DNA of 64,000 nucleotides, taken from positions 43,772,001 to 43,836,000 of the forward strand of contig OX597833.1 of the NCBI GenBank assembly GCA_951406725.2. Direction: 5' to 3'. Positions 18,012 through 58,539 of the stretch are shown here, piece by piece (positions within the stretch are counted from its first letter, which is position 1; each line of letters starts with the position of its first letter). The position numbers were made by a program, and so were the translations under genes. The DNA comes from Octopus vulgaris. Lineage: Eukaryota. The notes under the pieces are model-generated. The model did not search any database and was not told where the DNA came from. It saw only the letters and a list, made by a program, of their open reading frames with translations.

Positions 18012-18352
18012 GGATAACTAATGAAAAGCTGTATACAGAAAAGAAAGTTATTTTATTCAATACGGGTAGAAATATAGAAAAAAGTTGAAAATGCATTGGG
18101 ATTCGCTTGGTGAGTGTGTGTGCGTGTGTTTGTGTATATATATATATATATATATAAAGGAAATGAAGAAAATGCTGACAAAATAATTTAAGTAAAGGAG
18201 AGTGTATTTAATTAGGTGAAAGTTCTTTTTACCGGTTGCGCAATGCGGAATGGTCATTTTGCCAGTTTAGCCAATAAAAACACACGCACTATATATTTGG
18301 TGTTATTTTGCTTCAGTGTTATTTATTTTTTACATGAATCTTAATCTTATTT

Positions 18353-18398
18353 GGGCCAGAGTTCTTTCGTCACACTCCTGTGACCGCATCAGTGGTCC
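18353..18398 (-). ncRNA. Minimal type I hammerhead ribozyme-like motif
   Basis: ggacca-CTGATGC-G-GTCACA(ggag)TGTGAC-GAAA-gaac-TC-tggccc; helices I and II pair, A9 replaced by C. Confidence 0.55.
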
Positions 18399-18435
18399 TT
18401 TCTTTCCACACATGACTTCACATAAAAAATCTTGC

Positions 18436-18507
<72 letters not shown>

Positions 18508-19387
18508 TATATATATATAACGGATTAAGTCGACTTCATCGACCCCAGTGCGTAACTGGTACTTAATTTATCGACCCCGAGAGGATGAAAGGCAAAGTCG
18601 ACCTCGGCGGAATTTGAACTCAAAACGTAGCGACGGACTAAAAACCGCGAAGCACTTCGCCCGGCATGCTAACGTCTCTGCCATTATTTTCATAAAAACT
18701 GCAGTAAATTTTAAACTTTTCTTAAAATTCAAATTACAATGAATAATTCATTTGATTATTTACCCCCAGTGGTGATTTACAAGTAGGAAATTGATCTTTG
18801 TGTACACAAAATGGTATTTAAAAAAAGTTAAATTAAAATTGTTTCCTGCCAATAAATTTGTAAAAATATTCAGTGACCGAGATATATGTGTTATATGCAT
18901 TCTATGATATATGTTATATGTATTGTAAGTACAGTGATGTGATTTTATTTCTGAAACACACGACATAACTGACACATTTTAAGTAGATCTTAAAAACCGC
19001 CATTTTACTGACCGTTAGACTTTCTAGATTTAATTAAAAAATAACAACTTTCTGAAAATAATTTAGTAACGTTAGAGTTATGTCCCTTTTCTTTATCTCA
19101 TTATTACTGTTTACTTTTTGAAAATTTTCCGTAGCTGATAGATAGATTCCTAAATTTGTTTAAAATGTAAGAAATAATATCGTGTTTTAAAATAAAAGTC
19201 CTTAAAAATCCGTGATTCTGCCTTCGTTTCCATATATTTTTGTAGTTTTTCTTGAGTTTTAAAATTAAGTGGACATTAGATTAAATAGAGATCCTTTAGC
19301 ACTTTCGTAAACATATTTGAAACATACATCCTGTGTTTCAATTAATTTTAGAATAACTAAAATAACATTGTCATTATTAAGCTGGAG

Positions 19388-35982: not shown

Positions 35983-36059
35983 ATTAGATATACATATACA
36001 CACACATACTCTCACATATTATCATTATATCCATATATATACACATACACACACACATA

Positions 36060-37670
36060 TATCGTTATATCCATCCACTGATGTTGATTTTGCTGTGGAG
36101 AAATGTGTGGAGGTGATCAGCGAGAGCGATTTGGAGTTTCGTGGTGTTGACACAGAAGGACTGGGCCTTGTCCTGAGACTGACCTGTGACAACGGTCACT
36201 TAGATTAACATGACCTTAGTTCTTTCTGCTCTATTAGATCGGTAAGCGGTAGATCCCCAGCTATAGCTTCTATGGCCAGGAAGACCACTAGAGAGAAATG
36301 GAACGGGTGAACCAGAGCTATACGGATCCCCGAAAATGATAATCAGGTTACAAAGATGGTCGCACATGCAGTGGGTGTGAGTACCATGATCACACTCAAG
36401 GGCCACCTATTTAAGTTTAATAATAAGATATATGCCCAAGACGATGTTGGAACCATCGGTGTCAGTATCGCTGGCCATGTGGTCAACCTATTTAAGATTT
36501 GGTGGGATAGGAGACTCGAAGAAAAATTAGCAGACAACTCCATAACTCTAACCATGTACTCCCGCTATGTTGATATCAACATAGTAGCCAAAGCACCCCT
36601 ACAAGACGATGTTGATGAAGTAGAAGTTAACACTATGGAGAGCATCTGGAACATAGCTAACTACATTCATCAGAGTATCATAGTAATGATAGACTACCCT
36701 AACAATCACCCCAACAATAGGCTACTAGTTTTAAACGCTGACCTCTGGTTAGAAACCAAAATTAATAAGGTCCAGATGCTTCACTCCAGTTATGCCAAAC
36801 CAACCTATGGCCTCTAAATAACTTGCCCACAAGAACACAGCCATGGCTGACAACGCCTAGTTCAATATTTTTATGGCGGACTTGGTGAGAATGACGAGGA
36901 ATGTGTTTCGCATATGCGGCGATCCTATGGAATTGGAAAGACACATACAACACTTCATCCAGTTCTCTGACTATAACCAAAGGACCCAGGGCTAAGTACA
37001 AGGCCATCATAGAGAGTGATGCAAAGAGGATCAGCCCGTTATACAGGAGTAAATCCAGGAACATCACAGAAAGGACCACAAAAAAGATAGATAAGGCCAA
37101 CTCATGGTATGAGAACAAAAAATACCACAGTGTCATGTTCGTTGATGCCATCCATGGCGACGAACTAGCATATCTTTTTAGAAAAACATTAGATAAGGCC
37201 AATCTACGGATAAAAGTAGTAGAAAGGCTTAGTGCCCCTATAAAATCCCTGATCCGTAAAACTTATCCATTCGATAGGTCCCCATGTACAGAGAGCAATT
37301 GTATTGTATGTAGGATGAACCCACAAGTTAACTGTAAAGTTATGAATATAGTGTATTGCTTACAATGTACCGAGGGGCGGTGCAGAAGCATGACAACTAC
37401 TTCCATTGGAGAGACAGCACGCAGCATAGGAGAGCGTATAGGTGACATTGGCGAGAGCCCAAAGAAGAGAAAGGCTCGCAAGTGCTCTGCCAACATGCTC
37501 AAGTAGAACATAGAAGCTTAGTCAATAGAATAGAGGTCAAAATATTACCAATGCATAGAACTGACACGATACTTAGACATATCACAGAGGCTATACACAT
37601 AGCAATAGAGAGACGTAGCCTCAACAGAAAACACGAATGGAACAATAACACCTATCACCACACAACATGA
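36060..37670 (+). mobile_element. Degenerate Penelope-like element (RT + GIY-YIG endonuclease)
   Basis: SLYPS (motif A), GTIGVSIAG (motif B), YSRYVD (motif C); C-terminal CIVC..CKVMNIVYCLQC..C..SIGETARSIGERI. Confidence 0.8.
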
Positions 37671-38084
37671 CGACTAAAGACTAAAGACTGAAGACTGAAG
37701 GGAGAAAAAAAAAAAACAGATACAAACAACGTAATAAACATACAATAGACGTATATGCACATACCTATGATAAATATTTTAAAAAAATAGCGACATTAAA
37801 AAAACTGTACAAAGGGCATGGATACAAATAACATAGGCAGTAAACCCATATACATACACAAACACACATACGGTAACTTCACAGACGGCCGCAACAAAAT
37901 CAACAACACGATTAACAGCAATGGCAACAACAACAACATCTGCCATGATGGCAGCAGCGTGGGCGAACACACAAACACAGTGATTTACAAGACCGGCACA
38001 TAAAGTCGGGTTCAAGGGTAACAGCAGCGGCAACGGAGTAAGGGACGAAGCTGAAAGGAGGGTCATAGTGCTACTAAAAACAAT

Positions 38085-38128
<44 letters not shown>

Positions 38129-38900
38129 TACACACAAACACAGACGCATGCGCATATTAGGATACACACCATAGAAGAACAGGATGGAATAAGCAGAGCA
38201 AGAGCACTCACGAAGACGGAAAGTGTCGCTGAAGAGGTCACAGATGTGTGACGAAAGATTTCCGGATAATGGATATGAGTTAGAATAAGAACAGTAATCA
38301 ACGAATATATAGTGCGTGTATTTATTTGGCAAAAAACCCCCAGAAAAATTACCACCCCGAAATACAAAAACATATTTATTTTTGCTATAAATTTGGGACG
38401 AGAACTAGCCACTGTCCTCCTACGGTCAAACTTCAAATTTTGGCTATTTTTAGAACTGAATTCCAAAGGCAAATAAGCTGATTCACACACTTACATAAGA
38501 AGACACATAGGACAATTCAGCTTCAGTACTAACACACGTTCACACACAGAGAAAATGTATGCTGCTGTCTTAGTCTATAATGAACACTTACTCTATTAGG
38601 ATGTAAAGAAATATGTTGATTTTAGCCCTGAAGAGATCTCTACGTTTCAAATTCATAATGCATTGTTAATTGTAAAATGAATGAAGGTGGTTATTGAAAC
38701 GATCGTTGGACTTATGTAATCGACAGTTATGTAAATAAATTGATTTTGCTGTATTCAATCTCTCCATTTTCTTTATATAATACCTGAAATTATGTTCGCA
38801 TATATCGAATTAGATGACAGCATCTATACGGACTACTGGAACTCCATAATGTGTATAGTACTAGTGTCTAATGAATACTAATGCTAACACAAAGAAATAA

Positions 38901-47972: not shown

Positions 47973-48082
47973 AAAACACAAGATTGGACTTGGAATGTTT
48001 GTTGATAGAAATATATCTTTTCATATTTATATTTGGTTTGGGGAAGTGCTAGCTCACATATTTACTTCCTACATATAAAAAA

Positions 48083-48115
<33 letters not shown>

Positions 48116-48135
48116 GCACACACACATATATACAC

Positions 48136-49805
48136 TACGGTGATGCAAAGAAGGGATCAAAAAAATTTCTTTTTTCAATTTTCAGGGAGACACCCTCCTA
48201 TTTTATTCATATTCCTAAGAAAGCATTGTATGCGAAATTAGGGATTAAAAGAGAGAAAATTAGAAGTTGCTACCAAGCTTTAAAAATAAATGTATATCAG
48301 TTTGAGCTAAAAAATATTGTTTTCTTTTTAAATATTTTCCCCGGAACCAATTTGATATATACCTAGTTAACCTAGTTTGAAAAACAAAAACGATGACATT
48401 TTAGGCTATAGTACATAGTGAGGTAGAGCTTATAGCGCGTTAACTTTTTTATGTGAAATATTTCGTTTTTGGATTTGGTTTGCAAGATTCTTTATATGAG
48501 TTCGTGTGTTGAAGCATATTCTGTTGTGTTTGGGGAGAGTCATTCTCTTTTAGAGAGTCAAGACTATTGAAAATTTTTTATGTGAAAGCTTTCCCAGTAG
48601 GCATATCATAACCACCGTAAGTTTATGTTTTTTTGTAAGCAAGTGTAATGTTTTCTTGTTTTGTTTGAGAGTGATGACCTGTAATTTTTAACAATTTAAA
48701 GACAGTATTGTTTCTACTCTTCATCATTGATTATCAGTTTGTTGTATTCCCCCATCAGTTGTACACCTCTTTCCGCAATGTCGTTTACCACTTTGATTCT
48801 GTATGCAATATCTCTTGCATTTGCATAACTTTCATCACCATTCTACTCTTCAGCATCTTTTTCAAGAAAAGTGCAATGCATCTCTAGGATTTTAAAGAAT
48901 CTTTTTGTGTTGGCTGTAACAAAATCCTGCACTTGTTTCCGCCCAGTTGATTCAGGATTTATTGATGCTCGTTTGTTCGGTTTTGAGTCAACTGGCTTCT
49001 GCAGAGCATGCTTCATCTTATTTTTTTCATGTGAAACAGCTGAATCAAAAAATGCAAGTGCCACAAGCTCCTCAGAGAGGTACCACAAATGTCTCAAAAA
49101 CTTATTGAGAGCAGCACTTGCAATTTTGTCATCCTTTTGATTGTAGAGCTGCAGACTTTACACAAAATGCAAATTTTAACAGAGGTGCACAAGAGGGTAT
49201 GGATATTAGATCTGATGTATAACGCAGCTGAAAAGCAGCAAAGATCTCTCAGTCCTTTTACCTCTGTTTCAGTTAGTTTAAACTGGATTTAAAGAACCAA
49301 ATTTTTAATGCAGAAAATTAGCTTGTCCATCCATCGTGCTCTGTGATAAGCTCCGGGTGCTTCAAAGCTGATTCCTGACTTGGGGATACTACCAAGGAAA
49401 ATGAGCATTAGCTCGAGCAATTCCTTGTAGTCATCACGAGGCTGCTGTTCATCAAACTGAACTTGAGCAAACTGAATGATTTCTTCAGCATCTGAGATTT
49501 TCTCTGCAATGTTAGGGTCATCTGTTTCTGTTTGGTAATTGTTCTTGTCAATTTCCACCAACATTGATTTGAATCTCTTAAACAGTTGTATGTCAGGGCC
49601 AGTAGAAAATGGTAAGGGGACAGAAAATGTACAATAAATACAACCTGAAAAATAACAATATACAAAATGTTCAGTGGATGGTAGCAAACTCTAAAATGTC
49701 TTCAATTAGGCTGAAATTTTGCATGTTGAGTTTTTGCACTAAATTAAATAAAATTAGAGATTGTCTTCAAGTTTTTGAAATGGTAAGTTATTTTGCATCA
49801 CCCTA
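48136..49805 (-). mobile_element. Internally deleted hAT transposon (hATm-like)
   Basis: TIR ta(c/g)ggtgatgcaaa; 8-bp TSD atatacac / atatacaa; transposase pieces QPRDDYKELLEL, PGAYHRARWM, HLWYLSEELVALAFFD, VVNDIAERGV. Confidence 0.85.
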
Positions 49806-50924
49806 ATATACAAACATGTACATATATATATATTCATAGATACACACATATATACACAAACACACACATATTTTGAAAAATATTTTGACACAAATGAAAT
49901 TTTAATGTTGAAGTGAAACTGGTAATACTTAAATACAGAGGGTTGTTTTAGGATGTGCTAGAAACAACAGCCAAATCGCCCTTAAATCACTCACTTTTCT
50001 CTCTGAAAGTATAAACAATTTTTTTTTTCTTTTTTTTACTGAAAATGCTCTTCCCATGATTTTGAAGTACAAAAAAAGAAAGAAAAAAACATTGGCCAAA
50101 ATAGTTCCGGAGTGAGATGATGAGGGAGCGGGGTGTAGAAAAAGAGTTTTCAAAACATTTTTCATACAAAGATACACCCCCACCCAACACCATCATTTCG
50201 AAGGCTGTGGCTTAAAAAAAATTGGGAAAATCCCCGAAAGAATTATCCCCACAAATTTCTGTATAATCATAATCTATGCCGTTTGAAAGGGATTTGTATA
50301 AAGTTTCATTAAAAGATACCCGTCTTCCTGAAAGTTATGAGGGCAAAATGTTAGATCGTGTGAATTTTCAGAAACTCCTCTCTTCACCCCCTTGGAAAAA
50401 TTTTATCCCATAAATCTCTATATACTTTGAAGCCACAACATCTAAGCAGTATTTGTAGAAAACGTTGTCAAAAAAGTATCCATTTTTCTGGATATTATGA
50501 GGCAACAAAGTCGGGGGTGTACACATTTGTTGTAATGCCCTTTTATTTATACGATTTTTTTTTCATTTCATGTTTATTTCATTCATTGTTTGCAGTGTTC
50601 TCTCTCCACCCACTTTCTCTCTCTCTCTCACACACTGAAAAGCTTACAGATGTGTTGCTGAATTGTTGTTTTGAGGGAAGGAAAAACTTGACAACCACTT
50701 CTCTCTCTGTTGCTGGACTACCGTGATGTTTATTTAAAAAAGAGAGATTATGACTGTGATAAAATAATGACAGCGAAATTTACTAAGCAAGTGAACACTA
50801 TAATACTATGAAATAATTAGACGTCATATATAAGAATTATTAGAATTTGGAATCAAATGTGAAAATATTATGGTGCCAGCAGGAAACCGCCCGGAGGGTG
50901 GTCATTCCGTTAGTATATATATAT

Positions 50925-51143
50925 ATTTCTTTACTGCCCACAAGGGGCAAAGCATAGAGGGGACAAACAAGGACAGACAAAGGGATTAAGTCGATTATAT
51001 CGACCCCACTGCGTAACTGGTACTTTATTTATTTACCCCGAAAGGATGAAAGGCAAAGTCGACCTCGGCGGAATTTGAACTCAGAACGTAACGGCAGACG
51101 AAATACGGCTACGCATTTCGCCCGGCGTGCTAACGTTTCTGCC
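50925..51143 (-). mobile_element. SINE family 2 monomer, head slightly truncated
   Basis: Homology to family 2. Confidence 0.9.
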
Positions 51144-51459
51144 AAGAAACACACAAAACTGTTAGTTTCACTTCAACATTGAAATTTAATTTGTCAAAAT
51201 ATTTTCGTCGCTTTGAGACCGCGACCTGTTCACTGACAAAGCTTCGTGCTGCACGAGATGCAGCACGAAGCTTTGTCAGTAAACAGGTCGCGGTCTCAAA
51301 GCGACGAAAATATTTTGACAAATTAAATTTCAATGTTGAAGTGAAACTAACGGTTTTGTGTGTTTCTTAAATTACTTATAAACACCTTCCATGCTGCAAT
51401 TGTTTTCGTTCCAGCACACAATCTCAGATCAGGTCACTTGCTATGCAAGTAAATCTCCG

Positions 51460-51460
<1 letters not shown>
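51144..51460. mobile_element. ~200-bp hammerhead-bearing element (51259-51460) preceded by an inverted partial copy, giving a 110-bp-arm palindrome
   Basis: Arms 51144-51253 and 51259-51368, 2 mismatches, loop cgaga; single copy at 53438-53635. Confidence 0.85.
51190..51240 (-). ncRNA. Minimal hammerhead-like motif with G3-C8 core
   Basis: tttgtca-GTGAACA-G-GTCGC(ggtctcaaa)GCGAC-GAAA-atat-TT-tgacaaa. Confidence 0.6.
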
Positions 51461-51501
<41 letters not shown>

Positions 51502-51535
51502 CTGAGAAATATTTTAATGAACTTTTATTTAACAA

Positions 51536-51878
51536 CTAGACTACTTGTGACCTGTTGGGTCACCAATATTTCAAGGTACCCGAAAAAATCGCGTATCTGG
51601 GAAACCCATGGTCTGATTTACGCGAAACTTGTTTAATTTCGTTTGTATTCACATGTCAATGGTACTTTACTTTCAAAGAATTTTTCCATTACGCGCTGGT
51701 TTGGCTATTTATAAAGGTTACCCGAAAAAAACTGTGTTTCTTAGGAACCTTTGGTCCAATTCACGCAAAACTTATTTTATTCCGTTTGTATTCACATTTC
51801 AAGCAAGCACGTAAGCAAGCAAACATGCAAGAAAGCATGCAAGAAAGCAAGCAAGTAAGCACGCAATCAAGCAAGCAC

Positions 51879-51929
<51 letters not shown>

Positions 51930-52043
51930 CGCAAGCAAGCACGCAAGCAAGCACGCAAGCAAGTAAGCATGCAAGCAAGTAAGCAAGCATGCAAGCAAGC
52001 AAGCACAGAAGCAAGCAATCACAGAGTTTTAGTATTATGTAGA
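51536..52043 (-). mobile_element. Non-autonomous Helitron containing (CAAG)n tract
   Basis: Minus strand: A|TCTACATAATAC...tgacccaacaggtca hairpin...CTAG|T; internal ~140-bp diverged tandem repeat. Confidence 0.7.
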
Positions 52044-52253
52044 TGAGAAAAACCCTAATATCACGACAAATTAATTCGTAACTCAAAAGCATGCAAATAG
52101 TTTACATTAACATTATTTACTAATAAATAAACTACGTCTGCATTAATGCAAAATGCAAAAGATTCGTTCAAAATGATGTAAAATTTGAGGTACGTCATCA
52201 GGTGAAAAAAAATCTTTTTACGAGTACTACCAGATTACTTGAATCCATATATT

Positions 52254-52297
<44 letters not shown>

Positions 52298-52346
52298 AGA
52301 TCGTTAGCTCCTACACGCATTTTTTCTCCTTGTTTTTTTCTGTGTA

Positions 52347-52384
52347 TCTTTCTGTTGATGAGCGTAGGCTCGAAACGTAAAAGA
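52347..52384 (+). ncRNA. Minimal hammerhead-like motif (A6U variant)
   Basis: tcttt-CTGTTGA-T-GAGC(gtag)GCTC-GAAA-cg-TA-aaaga. Confidence 0.55.
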
Positions 52385-52478
52385 CTTTTTCTATTTCTAT
52401 TTCTGAGCGCTATACTAATACATTTGCCTGTTTGTACTCCACCTGCCTTCGTCTTTTGTTTATTTTCGTAAACTTTCT

Positions 52479-52521
<43 letters not shown>

Positions 52522-52613
52522 ATCCAAACAAGAAAACACAAAAAAAAACACAACAACGCGAGGACGTGGAACAAATAAAGTATTGGATGCTCAGGAAAGA
52601 AAGGAAGAAGGAG

Positions 52614-52680
<67 letters not shown>

Positions 52681-53010
52681 GTATATGAGCGAGAGGATAT
52701 AGAAGAAGTTTTCATCAACTGACATAATGTAATAGATATGTACTATGGGTGCTCCGTTCAATTGATCACTAAGCCTCCAGCTTGAGCTACAAGTGACTAG
52801 TGTGATGTTGAGGCTGCTTATCAAAGACAGCTTGAAGTGGTTTCTTCTTGAAGATATAGATAAAAAATAAAACCAGGAAAAGAAAAACACTTGGTATCAC
52901 TCGAAAAAAAAAATTAATTTAGATAATATGATGTTTATATTATCAATCTAAATTAAAGAAACTTTCGAGTGATGTCAAATGTTTTTCCTTTTCTTTTTTA
53001 TTTTAATTTA

Positions 53011-53057
<47 letters not shown>

Positions 53058-53324
53058 GTCTGTCTATCTACATATACGTACATACATGGGTTATAGTAGA
53101 AGACATTTGTCCAAGGTGGCATGCAGTGGGACTGAACCCGGAACCATGTTGTTTGGGAAGCAACTTCTTACCACACAGCCACGCATGTAGACCGGCTGCC
53201 GAAACCCGGGATTGCTCTACGGAACTTTAGAACTTCAGTCTAATTCCCTTCCAACCGAGCTATTTCAGCTGGTACATACATACATACATACATACATACA
53301 TACATACATACATACATACATACA

Positions 53325-53357
<33 letters not shown>

Positions 53358-53437
53358 GCATAGAAGCTGCCCCAAAATGTCATCAGAGTACTACCTCCCT
53401 ATGCTACATGACGTTGTTGCAAAACAATATACAATAC

Positions 53438-53635
53438 AGCACAGAATTTTGTCAGTGAACAGGTCACGGTCTCAAAGTGACGAAAATATTTTGGCAAATC
53501 AAATTTAAAGGTTGAAGTGAATCTAACGGTTTTTGTGTTTCTTAAATGGATTGTAAACATCTTCCACGCTGCAATTGTTTTCGTTCCAGTACACGATCTC
53601 AGATGAGGTCACTTGCTATGCAAATACATCTCCGT
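53438..53635 (+). mobile_element. ~198-bp retroposed element with G3-C8 hammerhead-like motif (53448-53498)
   Basis: 12-bp TSD aatatacaatac (53426-53437, 53636-53647); homologous to 51259-51460. Confidence 0.85.
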
Positions 53636-54037
53636 AATATACAATACCATTCGGAAAAAAGACTGTCCTGGAATAAACATAGAGAACTCCCCTGTTATTG
53701 AATACATACGCAAATACCAACACAAGGAATACTGGTGGAATATTCCCATCAAAACAGGCCGCATATTATTGTTTGGGACAGACAAGAAAAAGTATGTACT
53801 GTCTTAGAAGTCAGCTGTCCTGTTGATGTGAATACCTCTTTGAAAATCAAATAGAAAGAAAATAACTAGTGACAACTGTTTCAAAACCTCCGGCTTCTAT
53901 ATCCAGATTACAAATTGACATCTATACCAATAATAATTGGAGAACTCGGTTTTCTAAGTAAATGCCTAACTCTCAGACCAATAAGCTTGGATTTTCAGAA
54001 AAAGAAATCAACCGATTCGCACATTGCAAATATAATC

Positions 54038-54502
54038 TTATTTCTTTATTGCCCACAAGGGGTTAAACACGGAGGGGACAAACAAGGACAGACAAAGGGA
54101 TGAAGACGATTACATCGACCCCAGTGCGTAACTGACACTTATTTAATCGAGCCCGAAAGGATGAAGGGCAAATCGACCTCGGCGGAATTTGAACTCAGAA
54201 CGTAACGGCAGATGAAATATCGCTAAGCATTTCGCCCGATGTGCTAACATTTCTGTGGAGGCGCAATGGCCCAGTGGTTAGGGCAACGGACTCGCAGTGT
54301 GTGTTTATTGAGTGAAAACACCCAAAAGCTCCACGAGGCTCCGGCACTCATTCACTCTTCCTGTTTCTTGAGTAACGCTGCGATGGACTTGCGTCCCGTC
54401 CAGCTGTGGGGAACACATAAGCCACAGAAACCGGGAAACTGGGTTCATGAGCCTGGCTAGGCTTGAAAAGGGTGAGAGAGCTAACATTTCTGCCAGTTCA
54501 TC
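54038..54502 (-). mobile_element. SINE family 2 containing a nested family-3 SINE (54256-54479, + strand)
   Basis: Nested copy has 13-bp TSD gctaacatttctg (54243-54255, 54480-54492). Confidence 0.85.
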
Positions 54503-54689
54503 CAATCTACAAGTGGGACATTAACCTATGCAAGACTTTTCTCAGATTTAAAATGTGTCATTGTTTCCGTTAGATGGAACTGTGTATCTTTGTTGGAAAC
54601 CAGTTCCTTCCTCAGAGGAAGAATTTAAATGATTAAATACAGAAGACACTTGTACACACACATGTATTTACATCATGTTAAGGTATATA

Positions 54690-55014
54690 GGAGCACTCCG
54701 TCGATTACGACGACGAGGGTCCCAGCTGATACGATCAACGGAACAGCTTGCTCGTGGAATTAACGTGCAAGTGACTGAGCAATCCACAGACACGAGTACC
54801 CTTAACGTAGTTCTTAGGGAGATTCAACGTGACACAGAGTGTGACAAGGCCGGCCCTTTGAAATACAGGTACTACTCATTTTTGCCAGCTGAGTGGACTG
54901 GAGCAACGTGAAATAAAGTATCTTGCTCAAGGACACAACGCATCGCCGGGAATCGAACTCACGACCTTACAATCGTCAGTCGAATGCCCTAACCACTGAG
55001 CCACGCGCCTTCAC
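54690..55014 (-). mobile_element. tRNA-derived SINE, family 4
   Basis: Head gaaggcgcgtggctcagtggttagg, B-box gagttcgattcc, body ccttgagcaagatacttt shared in part with 17140-17380. Confidence 0.8.
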
Positions 55015-55355
55015 ACATCATGTTAAACCGTTAACCACTATACATTTCTTTCTCTTTCCGTTTTCCCGTTCTCTCACCATTTTTTACTTCTCAACCCTTT
55101 CTGTGGAAGAGCATATGTCAAGAAGACATTTCCATTCTTCCCGAGCGTCAAATCAATACACCTGCTTGTTGTTTATACACCTGTATTCATCTTTGGTTTT
55201 CAGTAAATTTGAATTACGCGTGTGCATGCGTGTGTATGTGCGTGCGTGTGTGTGTATGTGTGTACATATATGTATGTTTACGTGTGTGTGTGAAGCACGA
55301 ACTCTTGCTTCTTGAGTCACCGAGTCACTTGTGTACTTTCTTTGTTAATATGTAA

Positions 55356-55714
55356 GTATGTATGCGAGTGTATGTATGTATGTATGTATGTATGTACGTA
55401 TGTACGTATGTATGTATGTATGCGAGTGTATGTATGTATGTATGTATGTATGTATGTACGTACGTATGTATGTATGTATGTATGTGAGTGTATGTATGTA
55501 TGTATGTATGTATGTACGTACGTACGTACGTACGTATGTATGTATGTATGTATGTATGTATGTACGTACGTACGTATGTATGTATGTATGTATGTACGTA
55601 TGTATGTATGTACGTACGTACGTATGTATGTATGTATGTATGTATGTATGTATGTATGTATGTATGTGAGTGTATGTATGTATGTATGTATGTATGTATG
55701 TATGTATGTATGTA
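55356..55714. repeat. (TATG/TACG)n microsatellite
   Basis: Direct inspection. Confidence 0.95.
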
Positions 55715-56115
55715 TGCATGCACGTACTCGTTCACACGCACACACATACGCTTCAGATAAGAGACAGAAAAGGGGCGCTCTAGAGATACGCTTAGTCGTA
55801 TCCACTCAAGTGACATCAAAAGCTAATCCAGAACTTATCAACTAATGATAAGCCTCTTAAACATGTTGCATCATGCTGATGTAAGGACTTTTTGGTGTTG
55901 TGCAAGAGTTAGATGTTGAGGTAGATGATGAAAAAAAAGGTAAAGATATTTCATTGTTGCCAAATTTGCGTGACTAAGTTTGGTCCGGAAATATCTTATG
56001 CCTTGAGAAGTGTGACGGTTTATGGGAAGTTAAACTGACCGAAATAGATATTTGGTGTATGTGTGTGTGTGTGTGTGTGTGTGCGTGCGTGTGTTATTTT
56101 TGATTTCAAGTGTAT

Positions 56116-56332
56116 TACTCTTTTACTCTTTTACTTGTTTCAGTCGTTTGACTGCGGCCATGCTGGAGCACCGCCTTTAGTCGAGCAAATCGACCCCGGG
56201 ACTTATTCTTTGTGAGCCCAGTACTTATTCTATCGGTCTCTTTTGCCGAACCGCTAAGTGACGGGGACGTAAACACACCAGCATCGGTTGTCATGCAATG
56301 TTAGAGGGACAAACACAGACACACAAACATAT

Positions 56333-56363
<31 letters not shown>

Positions 56364-56534
56364 CATATATACGACAGGCTTCTTTCAGTTTCCGTCTCCC
56401 AAATCCACTCACAAGGCATTGGTCGGCCCGGGGCTATAGCAGAAGACACTTGCCCAAGATGCCACGCAGTGGGACTGAACCCAGAACCATGTGGTTGGTT
56501 AGCAAGCTACTTACCACACAGCCACTCCTGCGCC
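56116..56534 (-). mobile_element. SINE family 1, full length
   Basis: Homology to family 1. Confidence 0.9.
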
Positions 56535-57237
56535 TATTGTTTGTATTAAGGAGTTCTTGTTTGTTCATATTCATTTTTTTGCTCGGGCTGTTCCTTTATG
56601 TGTGTTGCATATTGTGTAGGGTATTCATTTTTTTCAGTACTGATGTATATCAAATAGATTTTATTAAATATTCTTTATGTTCAGGTTATGTTACTTCTAT
56701 TATTTATGTTAAGCTTGAATGCTGCTGGGGCCTTGGCTATCTGGAATCATTGATAAATTTTAAAGGTCAATCGCTGTTTGTTTAAACATCTCAGGGCTTG
56801 TTCGTGTCTTGTATTAATTTAGTACAGAGGCTATTCTCGAAATCAAAAATAACACACACAGCTATTTAGAAGAACAAGGGACCTTACAAAGCCAACAATC
56901 TAGACCTTAACCTATTTTAAGACTATGTCCTAATGTTTCATTGCTTGGCATCTTGAGCAAAGTATTTTCTATAATACCTTCTTGTAATACTGGCTTTCGG
57001 CATGGGCACACAGAGCAGTTCTCCAAATGCTGCAGAAGTCTAGAGGCCCAATTTTGATCTATGCATGATGTGACTCACAATCAATAAATAAAGTCCAGTG
57101 CACTGATTTGCCCCTGAATGGGAGTGGAGGCATATAGTGCTGTTAAGATGCTTAAGTTTACAAGTGAAATTTTATAAACGGAAGCTGTGCAAAATCATGT
57201 CGATTGTGCGCGTGTGTGTGTGTGCACGTGCACACAT

Positions 57238-57535
57238 GTTAGTTAGTTATTTAGTTAGTTAATTTTTGGGCTCAAAAAGCAAAAAGCAAGGCCATGTAGG
57301 GGGACACGGAGTTATGTACAGGGTGGTGTTCATGTAAAGAGTTCAGGCCACTTGTGGTCAAGGGAGACTTTGAACCGAGCGGTCGCCGGCATCTTCACTA
57401 TCTCGTCCGGCAGCTTATTCCACGGATCCACAACCCGGACGGAGAAAGCCCCTCTCCTTCGATTGAGATGAAATCGTCGCAGATAGAGCTTTTCGGAGTG
57501 ACCCCGCAGCCGACGGAGGCTTCAACCTTTCTGAA
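57238..57535 (-). mobile_element. CR1-type LINE 3' end with (TAAC)n tail
   Basis: RLRGHSEKL...RRGAFSVRVVDPWNKLPDEIV...FKVSLD. Confidence 0.8.
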
Positions 57536-58539
57536 CACGTGTATGTGTGTGAGTGAGTGCGTGTGCACATGTGTGTGTGTGTGTGCCGTTGAAGGATGTA
57601 AGTACTGAAGGAAACCCGATGTTCTTCAAACGAAATCAGTATAGAAAGAGACGCCTTTGCACTAACTTACAGACAATCACTCACGCCGTCAAGATATACG
57701 TGGCACACTTTGTCACAAGACTTTTTGTCGTAGCTTCTCACCAAACTTTACGACATTTAATGCAACCTCAAAACAGATTTTCGTTAGATATTCTAGTAAA
57801 TAAAGGCGGCAAGCTAGCAGAATCGTTAGCATGTCAGGGAAAATGCTTAGCGGTATTTCATCCATTTTTACGTTCTGAGTTCCAACTTATCCAGGGTTGA
57901 CTTTGTCTTTCTTCTATTTGGGATCGATAAGGTAAGTACTAGTTGAACACTGGGATCAATGTAATCGATTTAACCCCTTCCAGAAATTGTTGATCTTGTG
58001 CCAAAGTCTGAAACCAATTGTATATTTTTTTTGTAAAACAAGAAAATGCAATGAACATGCAGAATCGTTAGTACTCTGGACAAAAATGCTTAGCATCATT
58101 TCTACCAGTTCATATTTAATCTTTCATTCTTTCGAAATTGATATAACAAACACCTTTGGAGCACTAGGATTGAATTCACTTTGCTCACAATTTCAGACCT
58201 TGTCCCTATAGTAGAAAGAATTTGTAAAACGAAAAGAAAAGAAAAAAAAAACTTTCTTCGGTTGATCAATTTTCAATTTCACTTTCGTCAGTGGAAATTC
58301 AACATGACGAGTATTTGTTACATTGCTGACTGTCTTGTTGCTAATGTATGAAAAGTCATTAAAGCTAGTTGAAGTTTATCTCTTCTACTTACACAATCTC
58401 TTAGTGATAGGCAAATATAATTGATAACGAGAAGATACGAGAGAACCATAAAGTGAACTAACATCACATAGGCAAATATTTAAACAAAAAAAAAACGTGC
58501 TCCCTTAGCCTGATCGCTCAACACATTACAAAATCAACT

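Follow-up and report, generated by a model that had tools for sequence, protein, structure and literature searches.

The 64,000-nt stretch of the Octopus vulgaris genome analysed here (the window) contains a short insert with a motif that reads like a hammerhead ribozyme in which the core pair between positions 3 and 8 is G-C instead of C-G. This locus raises two questions: what kind of element the insert belongs to, and whether a hammerhead with such a swapped pair could still cut RNA. Our reading, to which we assign a probability of roughly 80%, is that the insert is a solo pLTR piece of a coding Penelope-like retroelement, and that its fixed G3-C8 hammerhead, by prediction, likely still cuts RNA slowly.

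The insert and its host

The features at the locus are as follows.
53361..53990 (ends approximate), plus strand: host, the degenerate 3' remnant of a non-LTR retrotransposon that carries restriction-like endonuclease motifs and is interrupted by the insert
53426..53437, plus strand: left 12-bp target-site duplication, present once in other host copies
53438..53635, plus strand: solo pLTR fragment of a Penelope-like element (hammerhead, ORF start and tail)
53448..53498, plus strand: minimal type I hammerhead motif, predicted cleavage
53546..53638, plus strand: first 31 codons of the parent-element ORF (tblastn, 74% identity to the parent N-terminus)
53577..53635, plus strand: optional tail between two preferred 3' ends (putative reverse-transcription starts), with two 3' end classes
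53636..53647, plus strand: right target-site duplication, 12 bp

The concept of a tail is taken from passages of PMC11167929. The original prediction described a 198-bp insert with a perfect 12-bp target-site duplication, and the duplication is indeed present on both sides. Other copies of the host repeat run uninterrupted through one related 12-mer and represent the empty site (about 8 of 11 loci align there, judged by eye). The insert was also said to split an R4-like ORF. A retrotransposon is split, but what remains of it is a relic full of frameshifts and stops rather than an ORF. Relatives of the host elsewhere in the genome are about 80% identical and correspond to the C-terminal part of proteins that bear RVT_1, a CCHC knuckle and restriction-like motifs; a 43-residue query from the host itself found no homologue.

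The insert's last 93 bases, which extend 3 bases into the right duplication, correspond to codons 1-31 of the parent ORF. Over most of its length the insert is 84-89.5% identical to the pLTRs behind ORF-bearing copies, and it has at least 53 DNA matches, counted from 40 scored candidates of 3868. Terminal inverted repeats of the MITE kind, suggested by short complementarity of the ends, were rejected because both ends lie inside the coding retroelement. Two tRNA-like matches, at 53197-53269 and 54944-55005 (minus), score 27.4 and 27.1 bits, just below the Rfam cut-off, and are probably tRNA-derived SINE heads.

The hammerhead motif of the window copy

Hammerhead core positions are named here by the established numbering. 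Helix I is formed by 53448-53454 and 53492-53498. The core GTGAACA occupies 53455-53461, with G3 at 53455 and C8 at 53460, and is followed by a bulged G. Helix II (53463-53467/53477-53481), GAAA (53482-53485) and a palindromic helix III (53485-53490) complete the motif, with the predicted cut after U17 (53491). All parts lie where they had been placed in the original prediction; together they make a minimal type I layout as in Penelope elements, in which the 3:8 pair is swapped to G3-C8 and helix III is a 6-nt palindrome. The literal core CUGANGA is not matched, the core of the insert being GUGAACA; the motif has a Watson-Crick 3:8 pair, U4, G5, A6, A9, G12, A13, A14, A15.1-U16.1 and H17.

A strict hammerhead descriptor that permitted any Watson-Crick pair at 3:8 matched the insert and the copy at 51190-51240, with no match in 20 shuffled windows. 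An Rfam scan of 48000-58000 (E<=10) returned 103 matches, mostly microsatellite noise, and no hammerhead family among them, in line with the expectation that standard searches miss the motif. The window copy folds only weakly better than its shuffles (z = -1.46, with 18 of 200 equally good); for a young ORF-linked copy, z is -3.16 and one shuffle in 200 is equally good. Cofolding gave -26.4 kcal/mol for a dimer with swapped helices I and II versus -21.2 kcal/mol for the helix III dimer. The helix III palindrome is thus not the lowest-energy dimer in cofolding; it is nevertheless present, and it changes on both sides between families.

Copies of the family in the window and the genome

The window holds further members of the same and related families.
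18246..18516: pLTR fragment of the sister family, head-to-head, with a C3-G8 and C9 motif on the minus strand (C3 at 18392)
36059..38265, plus strand: related Penelope-like relic, 5'-truncated, with a canonical-core hammerhead motif (C3 at 38229)
49877..49920, plus strand: same-family fragment, 44 bp
51144..51253, minus strand: inverted partial copy with an intact G3-C8 motif at 51190-51240
51259..51466, plus strand: long-form copy, head-to-head with the inverted copy, core mutated to GTAAACA

The copy at 51190-51240 is the inverted half of a head-to-head pair, whose partner at 51272-51460 (plus strand) carries the damaged core. Its helix II does read GTCGC/GCGAC on the minus strand, as claimed. 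The difference from GTCAC/GTGAC in the insert had been taken for a compensatory change; it turned out to be two independent CpG decays. Among all copies with both letters, the combinations G-C, G-T, A-C and A-T occur 69, 6, 16 and 3 times (Fisher p=0.38), and the corresponding counts are 47, 4, 5 and 0 in copies not selected for likeness to the window copy. Since both positions are CpG sites and change independently, the difference is not covariation, and the window copy simply carries both decays. Variation in CpG columns is 0.08-0.13 in the core, the helices and downstream, and 0.05 in loop II. Non-CpG variation, from samples partly selected by motif, is 0.021 in the core, 0.031 in the helices and 0.038 downstream; overall, non-CpG columns outside loop II vary at 0.02-0.04. 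Genomic copies decay neutrally.

A 30-base core pattern had at least 2,974 matches in the genome and none in a reversed control. Among 100 listed matches, inspected by eye, 98 have G3-C8, one C-C, one G-G and none C3-G8, and G3-C8 is kept in 87 of 94 aligned copies. The 3' ends of copies fall at two points, after about 140 and about 200 bases, both within the start of the ORF. (TA)n surrounds many copies. At 44 distinct loci selected by pattern, 27 copies have an inverted partner, 16 are single and one is tandem. Passages of PMC8557442 and PMC11167929 describe traits of this sort for Penelope-like elements. Clean duplications are uncommon (8 calls at 89 copy ends, about 4 of them distinct and directly at the 5' junction). 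Six loci (L035, L036, L046, L047, L048 and L057) have a common inversion junction and a common downstream flank, and therefore represent one insertion multiplied within a larger repeat. At two others (L144 and L145, on G000:C28), short tandem runs of the 140-base form lie beside ORF-continuing copies, the sole retrozyme-like arrangement noticed.

The parent coding element

The original prediction suggested looking for a Penelope ORF adjoining longer copies, and one was found: an RT and GIY-YIG frame that begins within the unit of about 200 bases. Two of 100 listed 3' flanks had a common continuation, and a pattern made from it led to 28 places that run into coding sequence, 22 of which were examined. 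One locus (L135) has the complete order pLTR-ORF-pLTR, with the motif in both repeats. Another (L184) has an open frame of 1025 aa with RT motifs and a CX3CxxC linker. Its residues 915-1005 match GIY-YIG (PF01541) at 25.4 bits, compared with the Pfam cut-off of 22.6, and RVT_1 was found in 3 of 39 aligned homologues, not in L184 itself. The structure model of L184 has a pLDDT of 85, and telomerase RTs rank 1-3 by fold, with low TM-scores (about 0.25). A PDB sequence search with the single protein gave no matches, and one with the profile gave weak RT matches only. Pfam on parent fragments returned nothing above cut-off. A search for the parent by way of the Pfam GIY-YIG domain led to other families, from which all of the 30 loci and the 20 longer regions came, with only two copies lying nearby by chance. 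The partial-tandem pLTR, the inverted 5' copies and the optional tail are all Penelope-like.

The C-terminal 200 residues of the parent have at least 150 matches in the genome, many at 97-98%, which indicates that a young wave of the element exists. In this young subfamily loop II is altered while stems and core are unchanged. Older, decayed ORF copies (73-86% protein identity) have pLTRs with the loop type of the window copy, at most 89.5% identical to the insert. Among the copies examined, none has the whole ORF unbroken from the first codon; L135, L150 and L184 have a stop or a truncated 5' end.

The insert had been proposed to represent a distinct non-autonomous family bearing a ribozyme. 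Coding elements have that same sequence as their pLTR and ORF start, which weakens the case for a non-autonomous or retrozyme-like family, and copies lie head-to-head or singly rather than in tandem. The insert is the terminal repeat of an ORF-bearing Penelope-like element and probably not a separate non-autonomous family.

Related families and the 3:8 pair

Structures and mutants have established the 3:8 pair as a tertiary contact. A sister family (L210-L217) has open frames of 1312 codons with an Asn-rich insert, and is 54% identical to the parent in protein sequence, with N-termini 39% identical. Its motif at the corresponding place has C3-G8 and C9 at 15 of 15 sites and U or C at position 17; one pair of helix I is unpaired. 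Between parent and sister, where the covariation proper is found, five pairs differ on both sides: helix I contributes two, and helix II, helix III and the 3:8 contact one each. Slid controls gave 0-1 such pairs. In shuffles, 37 of 500 reached five pairs with a change on both sides; these counts are not probabilities, since the alignment across families comprises 5 rows and samples just two families that are independent. The third relative is the relic in the window, a single old copy with an ORF at 36059-37664 that is 48% identical to the parent and up to 65% identical to the sister. Its motif has the canonical core CTGAAGA and the same bulged G and helix II as the insert family, with only 3 pairs in helix I. 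Judged from these two canonical-pair relatives, G3-C8 appears to be derived from C3-G8.

More distant GIY-YIG ORFs are followed by further variants. U3-A8 motifs were found at 10 of the loci L061-L110, two being repeats of the same places, and a pattern for the A3-U8 motif had 154 matches, with A3-U8 in 99 of the 100 listed. Each of the two families has its own 6-nt palindrome. An example of the latter (L093:4055-4093; G000:C4, about 868558) belongs to a young Penelope-like family whose helix II has 3 pairs and whose palindrome is ACCGGT. The U3-A8 family (L092, L099, L100 and related loci) is high-copy with intact RT/GIY-YIG frames of 781 codons, and its hammerhead lies about 900 bases behind the ORF, after tandem CCAAT/TGACGT-like repeats. 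The reverse strand of L092 holds, around 1971, a further and separate motif with the canonical CTGAAGA core; its helix III is long, and it sits in an inverted repeat next to a Penelope-like copy.

Taken together, the C3-G8, G3-C8, U3-A8 and A3-U8 families mean that all four Watson-Crick pairs occur at 3:8. We suggest only tentatively, and with more doubt than confidence, that these four states were reached within one genome and that G3-C8 and A3-U8 are active natural ribozymes kept by selection as slow switches that let RT copy through.

Origin of the short copies and cleavage

How could a coding element leave so short a piece? We propose that the element protein would bind its RNA near the ORF start and nick AT-rich DNA, and that reverse transcription would begin at one of two internal sites. 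When started on the front repeat of the transcript, it would arrive at the 5' end of the RNA about 140 or 200 bases later and yield a short copy. We would expect the hammerhead to adopt the fold of other Penelope-like elements, helix III being completed by pairing between two copies or with help from protein, and the 3:8 tertiary contact to be preserved by G3-C8. Cutting would be late or slow, leaving the copied RNA uncut.

The ends of copies bear on this model. In 75 of 119 alignments, a set biased to 5'-complete copies, the 5' end lies no more than a few bases from a single point upstream of helix I; the figure is 26 of 45 in the least biased subset. Among 100 listed copies reaching this point, inspected by eye, 32 extend into the coding element's upstream sequence. 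Of the remaining 68, about 41 have a G at this point, roughly half of those at inversion junctions, and no common sequence further upstream. One locus (L230) has an extra G immediately after its duplication. A fixed 5' point with an extra G fits a capped transcript start. The bases upstream of the point look like a branch point and splice acceptor, for which the Drosophila Penelope intron described in a passage of PMC4209133 is a precedent; a splice joint was not seen in four contig sets guessed to be RNA, and contigs cannot show transcript ends.

The sequence upstream of the cut site is kept in at least 95 of 100 listed copies (by eye), and 1 of 45 copies starts at the cut site. No excess of such starts was seen in the 100 listed copies or the 45-copy subset, with the limit that the start pattern used for the 100 bars T at the first place and so under-counts truncated copies. 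As copies almost never begin at the cut site, the inserted ones come from uncut RNA. This is compatible with slow cleavage as well as with none, and neither shows nor excludes cutting.

For the ancestral form, we predict that measurable cleavage is somewhat more probable than its absence. C3G/G8C partly restores cleavage in mutants according to a section of PMC11167929, and PMC3884650 mentions in passing (data not shown there) that G3-C8 does better with G17 than with C17. U17 in the insert family would avoid a G3-C17 mispair. Minimal Penelope hammerheads are described in parts of PMC4209133 and PMC11167929 as slow and in need of dimers or protein. Against activity stand the weak folding score of the window copy, the preference of cofolding for the other dimer and the sister's fixed C at the conserved A9. 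The last implies that the lineage tolerates core damage, and this may be a hammerhead lineage with weak or no catalysis.

Alternative explanations

The element could be as described and its hammerhead catalytically dead, kept as a fold (a protein-binding, promoter or translation element) or merely inherited. The almost complete lack of cut copies and the fixation of C9 in the sister family agree with this. So do published passages reporting that minimal Penelope hammerheads are poor cutters whose monomers do not cut (PMC4209133), and that insertion in vitro is unaffected by ribozyme mutants (PMC11167929). On the other hand, 3:8 is a tertiary contact of the active fold and is Watson-Crick in all five families seen, and helix III stays self-complementary despite its changed letters. 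We regard a dead hammerhead as a serious minority view. Resemblance by chance, for which one could cite the empty Rfam result and the weak folding z-score of the window copy, is the least credible explanation: related elements hold a canonical core at the same position with the same bulged G and helix II, pairs change on two sides between families, and the shuffles gave no descriptor match. The canonical-core relatives already largely refute it.

The other alternatives concern the unit rather than the fold. A self-propagating, SINE-like element of about 200 bp, with short copies as the source of its transcripts and the Penelope-like protein moving it in trans, would explain why short copies (at least 2,974 core matches) are so much more numerous than coding copies with a complete 5' end (28 places), why both ends are fixed, and why depth on the first 230 bases is far above that on the ORF, in contigs from runs only guessed to be RNA; non-autonomous Penelope derivatives are described in portions of PMC8557442 and bioRxiv 10.64898/2026.07.22.740005. 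We consider it unlikely, since no sequence private to short copies was seen, their loop types are the same as those of coding copies, and the 32 of 100 listed copies noted above continue upstream into the coding element. Moreover, extrapolating from passages of PMC11167929, internal RT initiation alone predicts such short products. Less probable still, and very improbable overall, is a non-LTR retrozyme whose tandem units are cut to monomers and circularised. It shares the type I hammerhead and the unit of about 200 nt, and a derivation of retrozymes from pLTRs is proposed in an excerpt of the same preprint (bioRxiv 10.64898/2026.07.22.740005), but only one locus in 44 is tandem, copies do not start at the cut site, and an ORF start lies inside the unit.

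Relation to known systems

A solo piece of a coding Penelope-like element with a swapped 3:8 pair, the reading we prefer, has close parallels. The pLTR hammerheads of Cervera and de la Peña 2014, in the parts of PMC4209133 that describe them, are likewise type I, with an extra nucleotide between 9 and 10.1, a G10.1-C11.1 pair, a palindromic helix III region and a pLTR location, and the metazoan Penelope-like elements there also have many solo copies and opposite-strand pairs. Unlike the octopus family, none of the 56 rows of Fig. S3 in PMC4209133 starts with G3 or A3, and the descriptors given there cover C3-G8 and U3-A8. Natural U3-A8 covariation is reported in passages of PMC4209133 and PMC3088659 and is the sole natural 3:8 change there.

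PAc (Poseidon, Anolis; Frangieh et al. 2024, PMC11167929) shares several traits with our element, in the passages concerned: the ORF begins near the hammerhead, a tail is delimited by two 3' ends within the ORF start, targets are AT-rich and the RNA inserted is uncut. Reverse transcription of PAc has two internal starting points, both in the ORF start, with uncut RNA as its principal substrate. In that source C3G/G8C was engineered as a rescue mutant, whereas it is the natural fixed state in the octopus family. Also unlike PAc as described there, the octopus protein joins RT and EN by a Cys-rich linker of Neptune/Nematis type, and its element has a tail of about 60 nt. With the Neptune and Nematis clades, as characterised in sections of PMC8557442, it shares a single ORF with RT followed by GIY-YIG, a DKG-type motif (here DKS), a CX3CxxC linker, pLTRs, inverted 5' copies and microsatellite targets. 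The linker of L184 agrees with the Neptune pattern CX2-5CxxC, and Nematis also has a Zn-finger-like linker (PMC8557442, same sections). On these shared features the two clades are candidate placements; no named family was matched. Non-LTR retrozymes, in excerpts of PMC7229834 and bioRxiv 10.64898/2026.07.22.740005, share short type I hammerhead repeats and a link to Penelope pLTRs; they are tandem and non-coding in the PMC7229834 excerpt, in contrast to the octopus unit, which is solo or inverted and part of a coding element. The small dimeric Penelope-like variants of Lünse, Weinberg and Breaker 2017, as the title and passages citing the work present them, have a similar short stem III, dimer cleavage and an association with Penelope.

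In the literature searched, G3-C8 occurs in laboratory mutants only. Natural G3-C8 was not found in it, with Lünse 2017 and Arkhipova 2017 lying outside the search and possibly listing it; passages of PMC6765202, PMC6155905, PMC7229834, PMC8495972, PMC3884650 and PMC10085705 contain none. Natural A3-U8 was not found in the literature searched either. The element class and the link between ribozyme and pLTR are already known, which limits the surprise; the natural G3-C8 core variant is the new part within that literature. The role of hammerheads in Penelope-like elements is described as open in passages of PMC8557442 and PMC11167929.

Implications

The natural series C3-G8-A9, C3-G8-C9 and G3-C8-A9, together with the U3-A8 and A3-U8 families, provides evolutionary support for the 3:8 tertiary pair and supplies test RNAs for distinguishing selection for catalysis from selection for the fold alone. 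Motifs of this kind would be overlooked by the thousand with descriptors tied to CUGANGA or UUGANAA, and some elements scored as being without a hammerhead may therefore have one. If G3-C8 and A3-U8 are truly active, there would be a large class of genomic hammerheads invisible to current searches.
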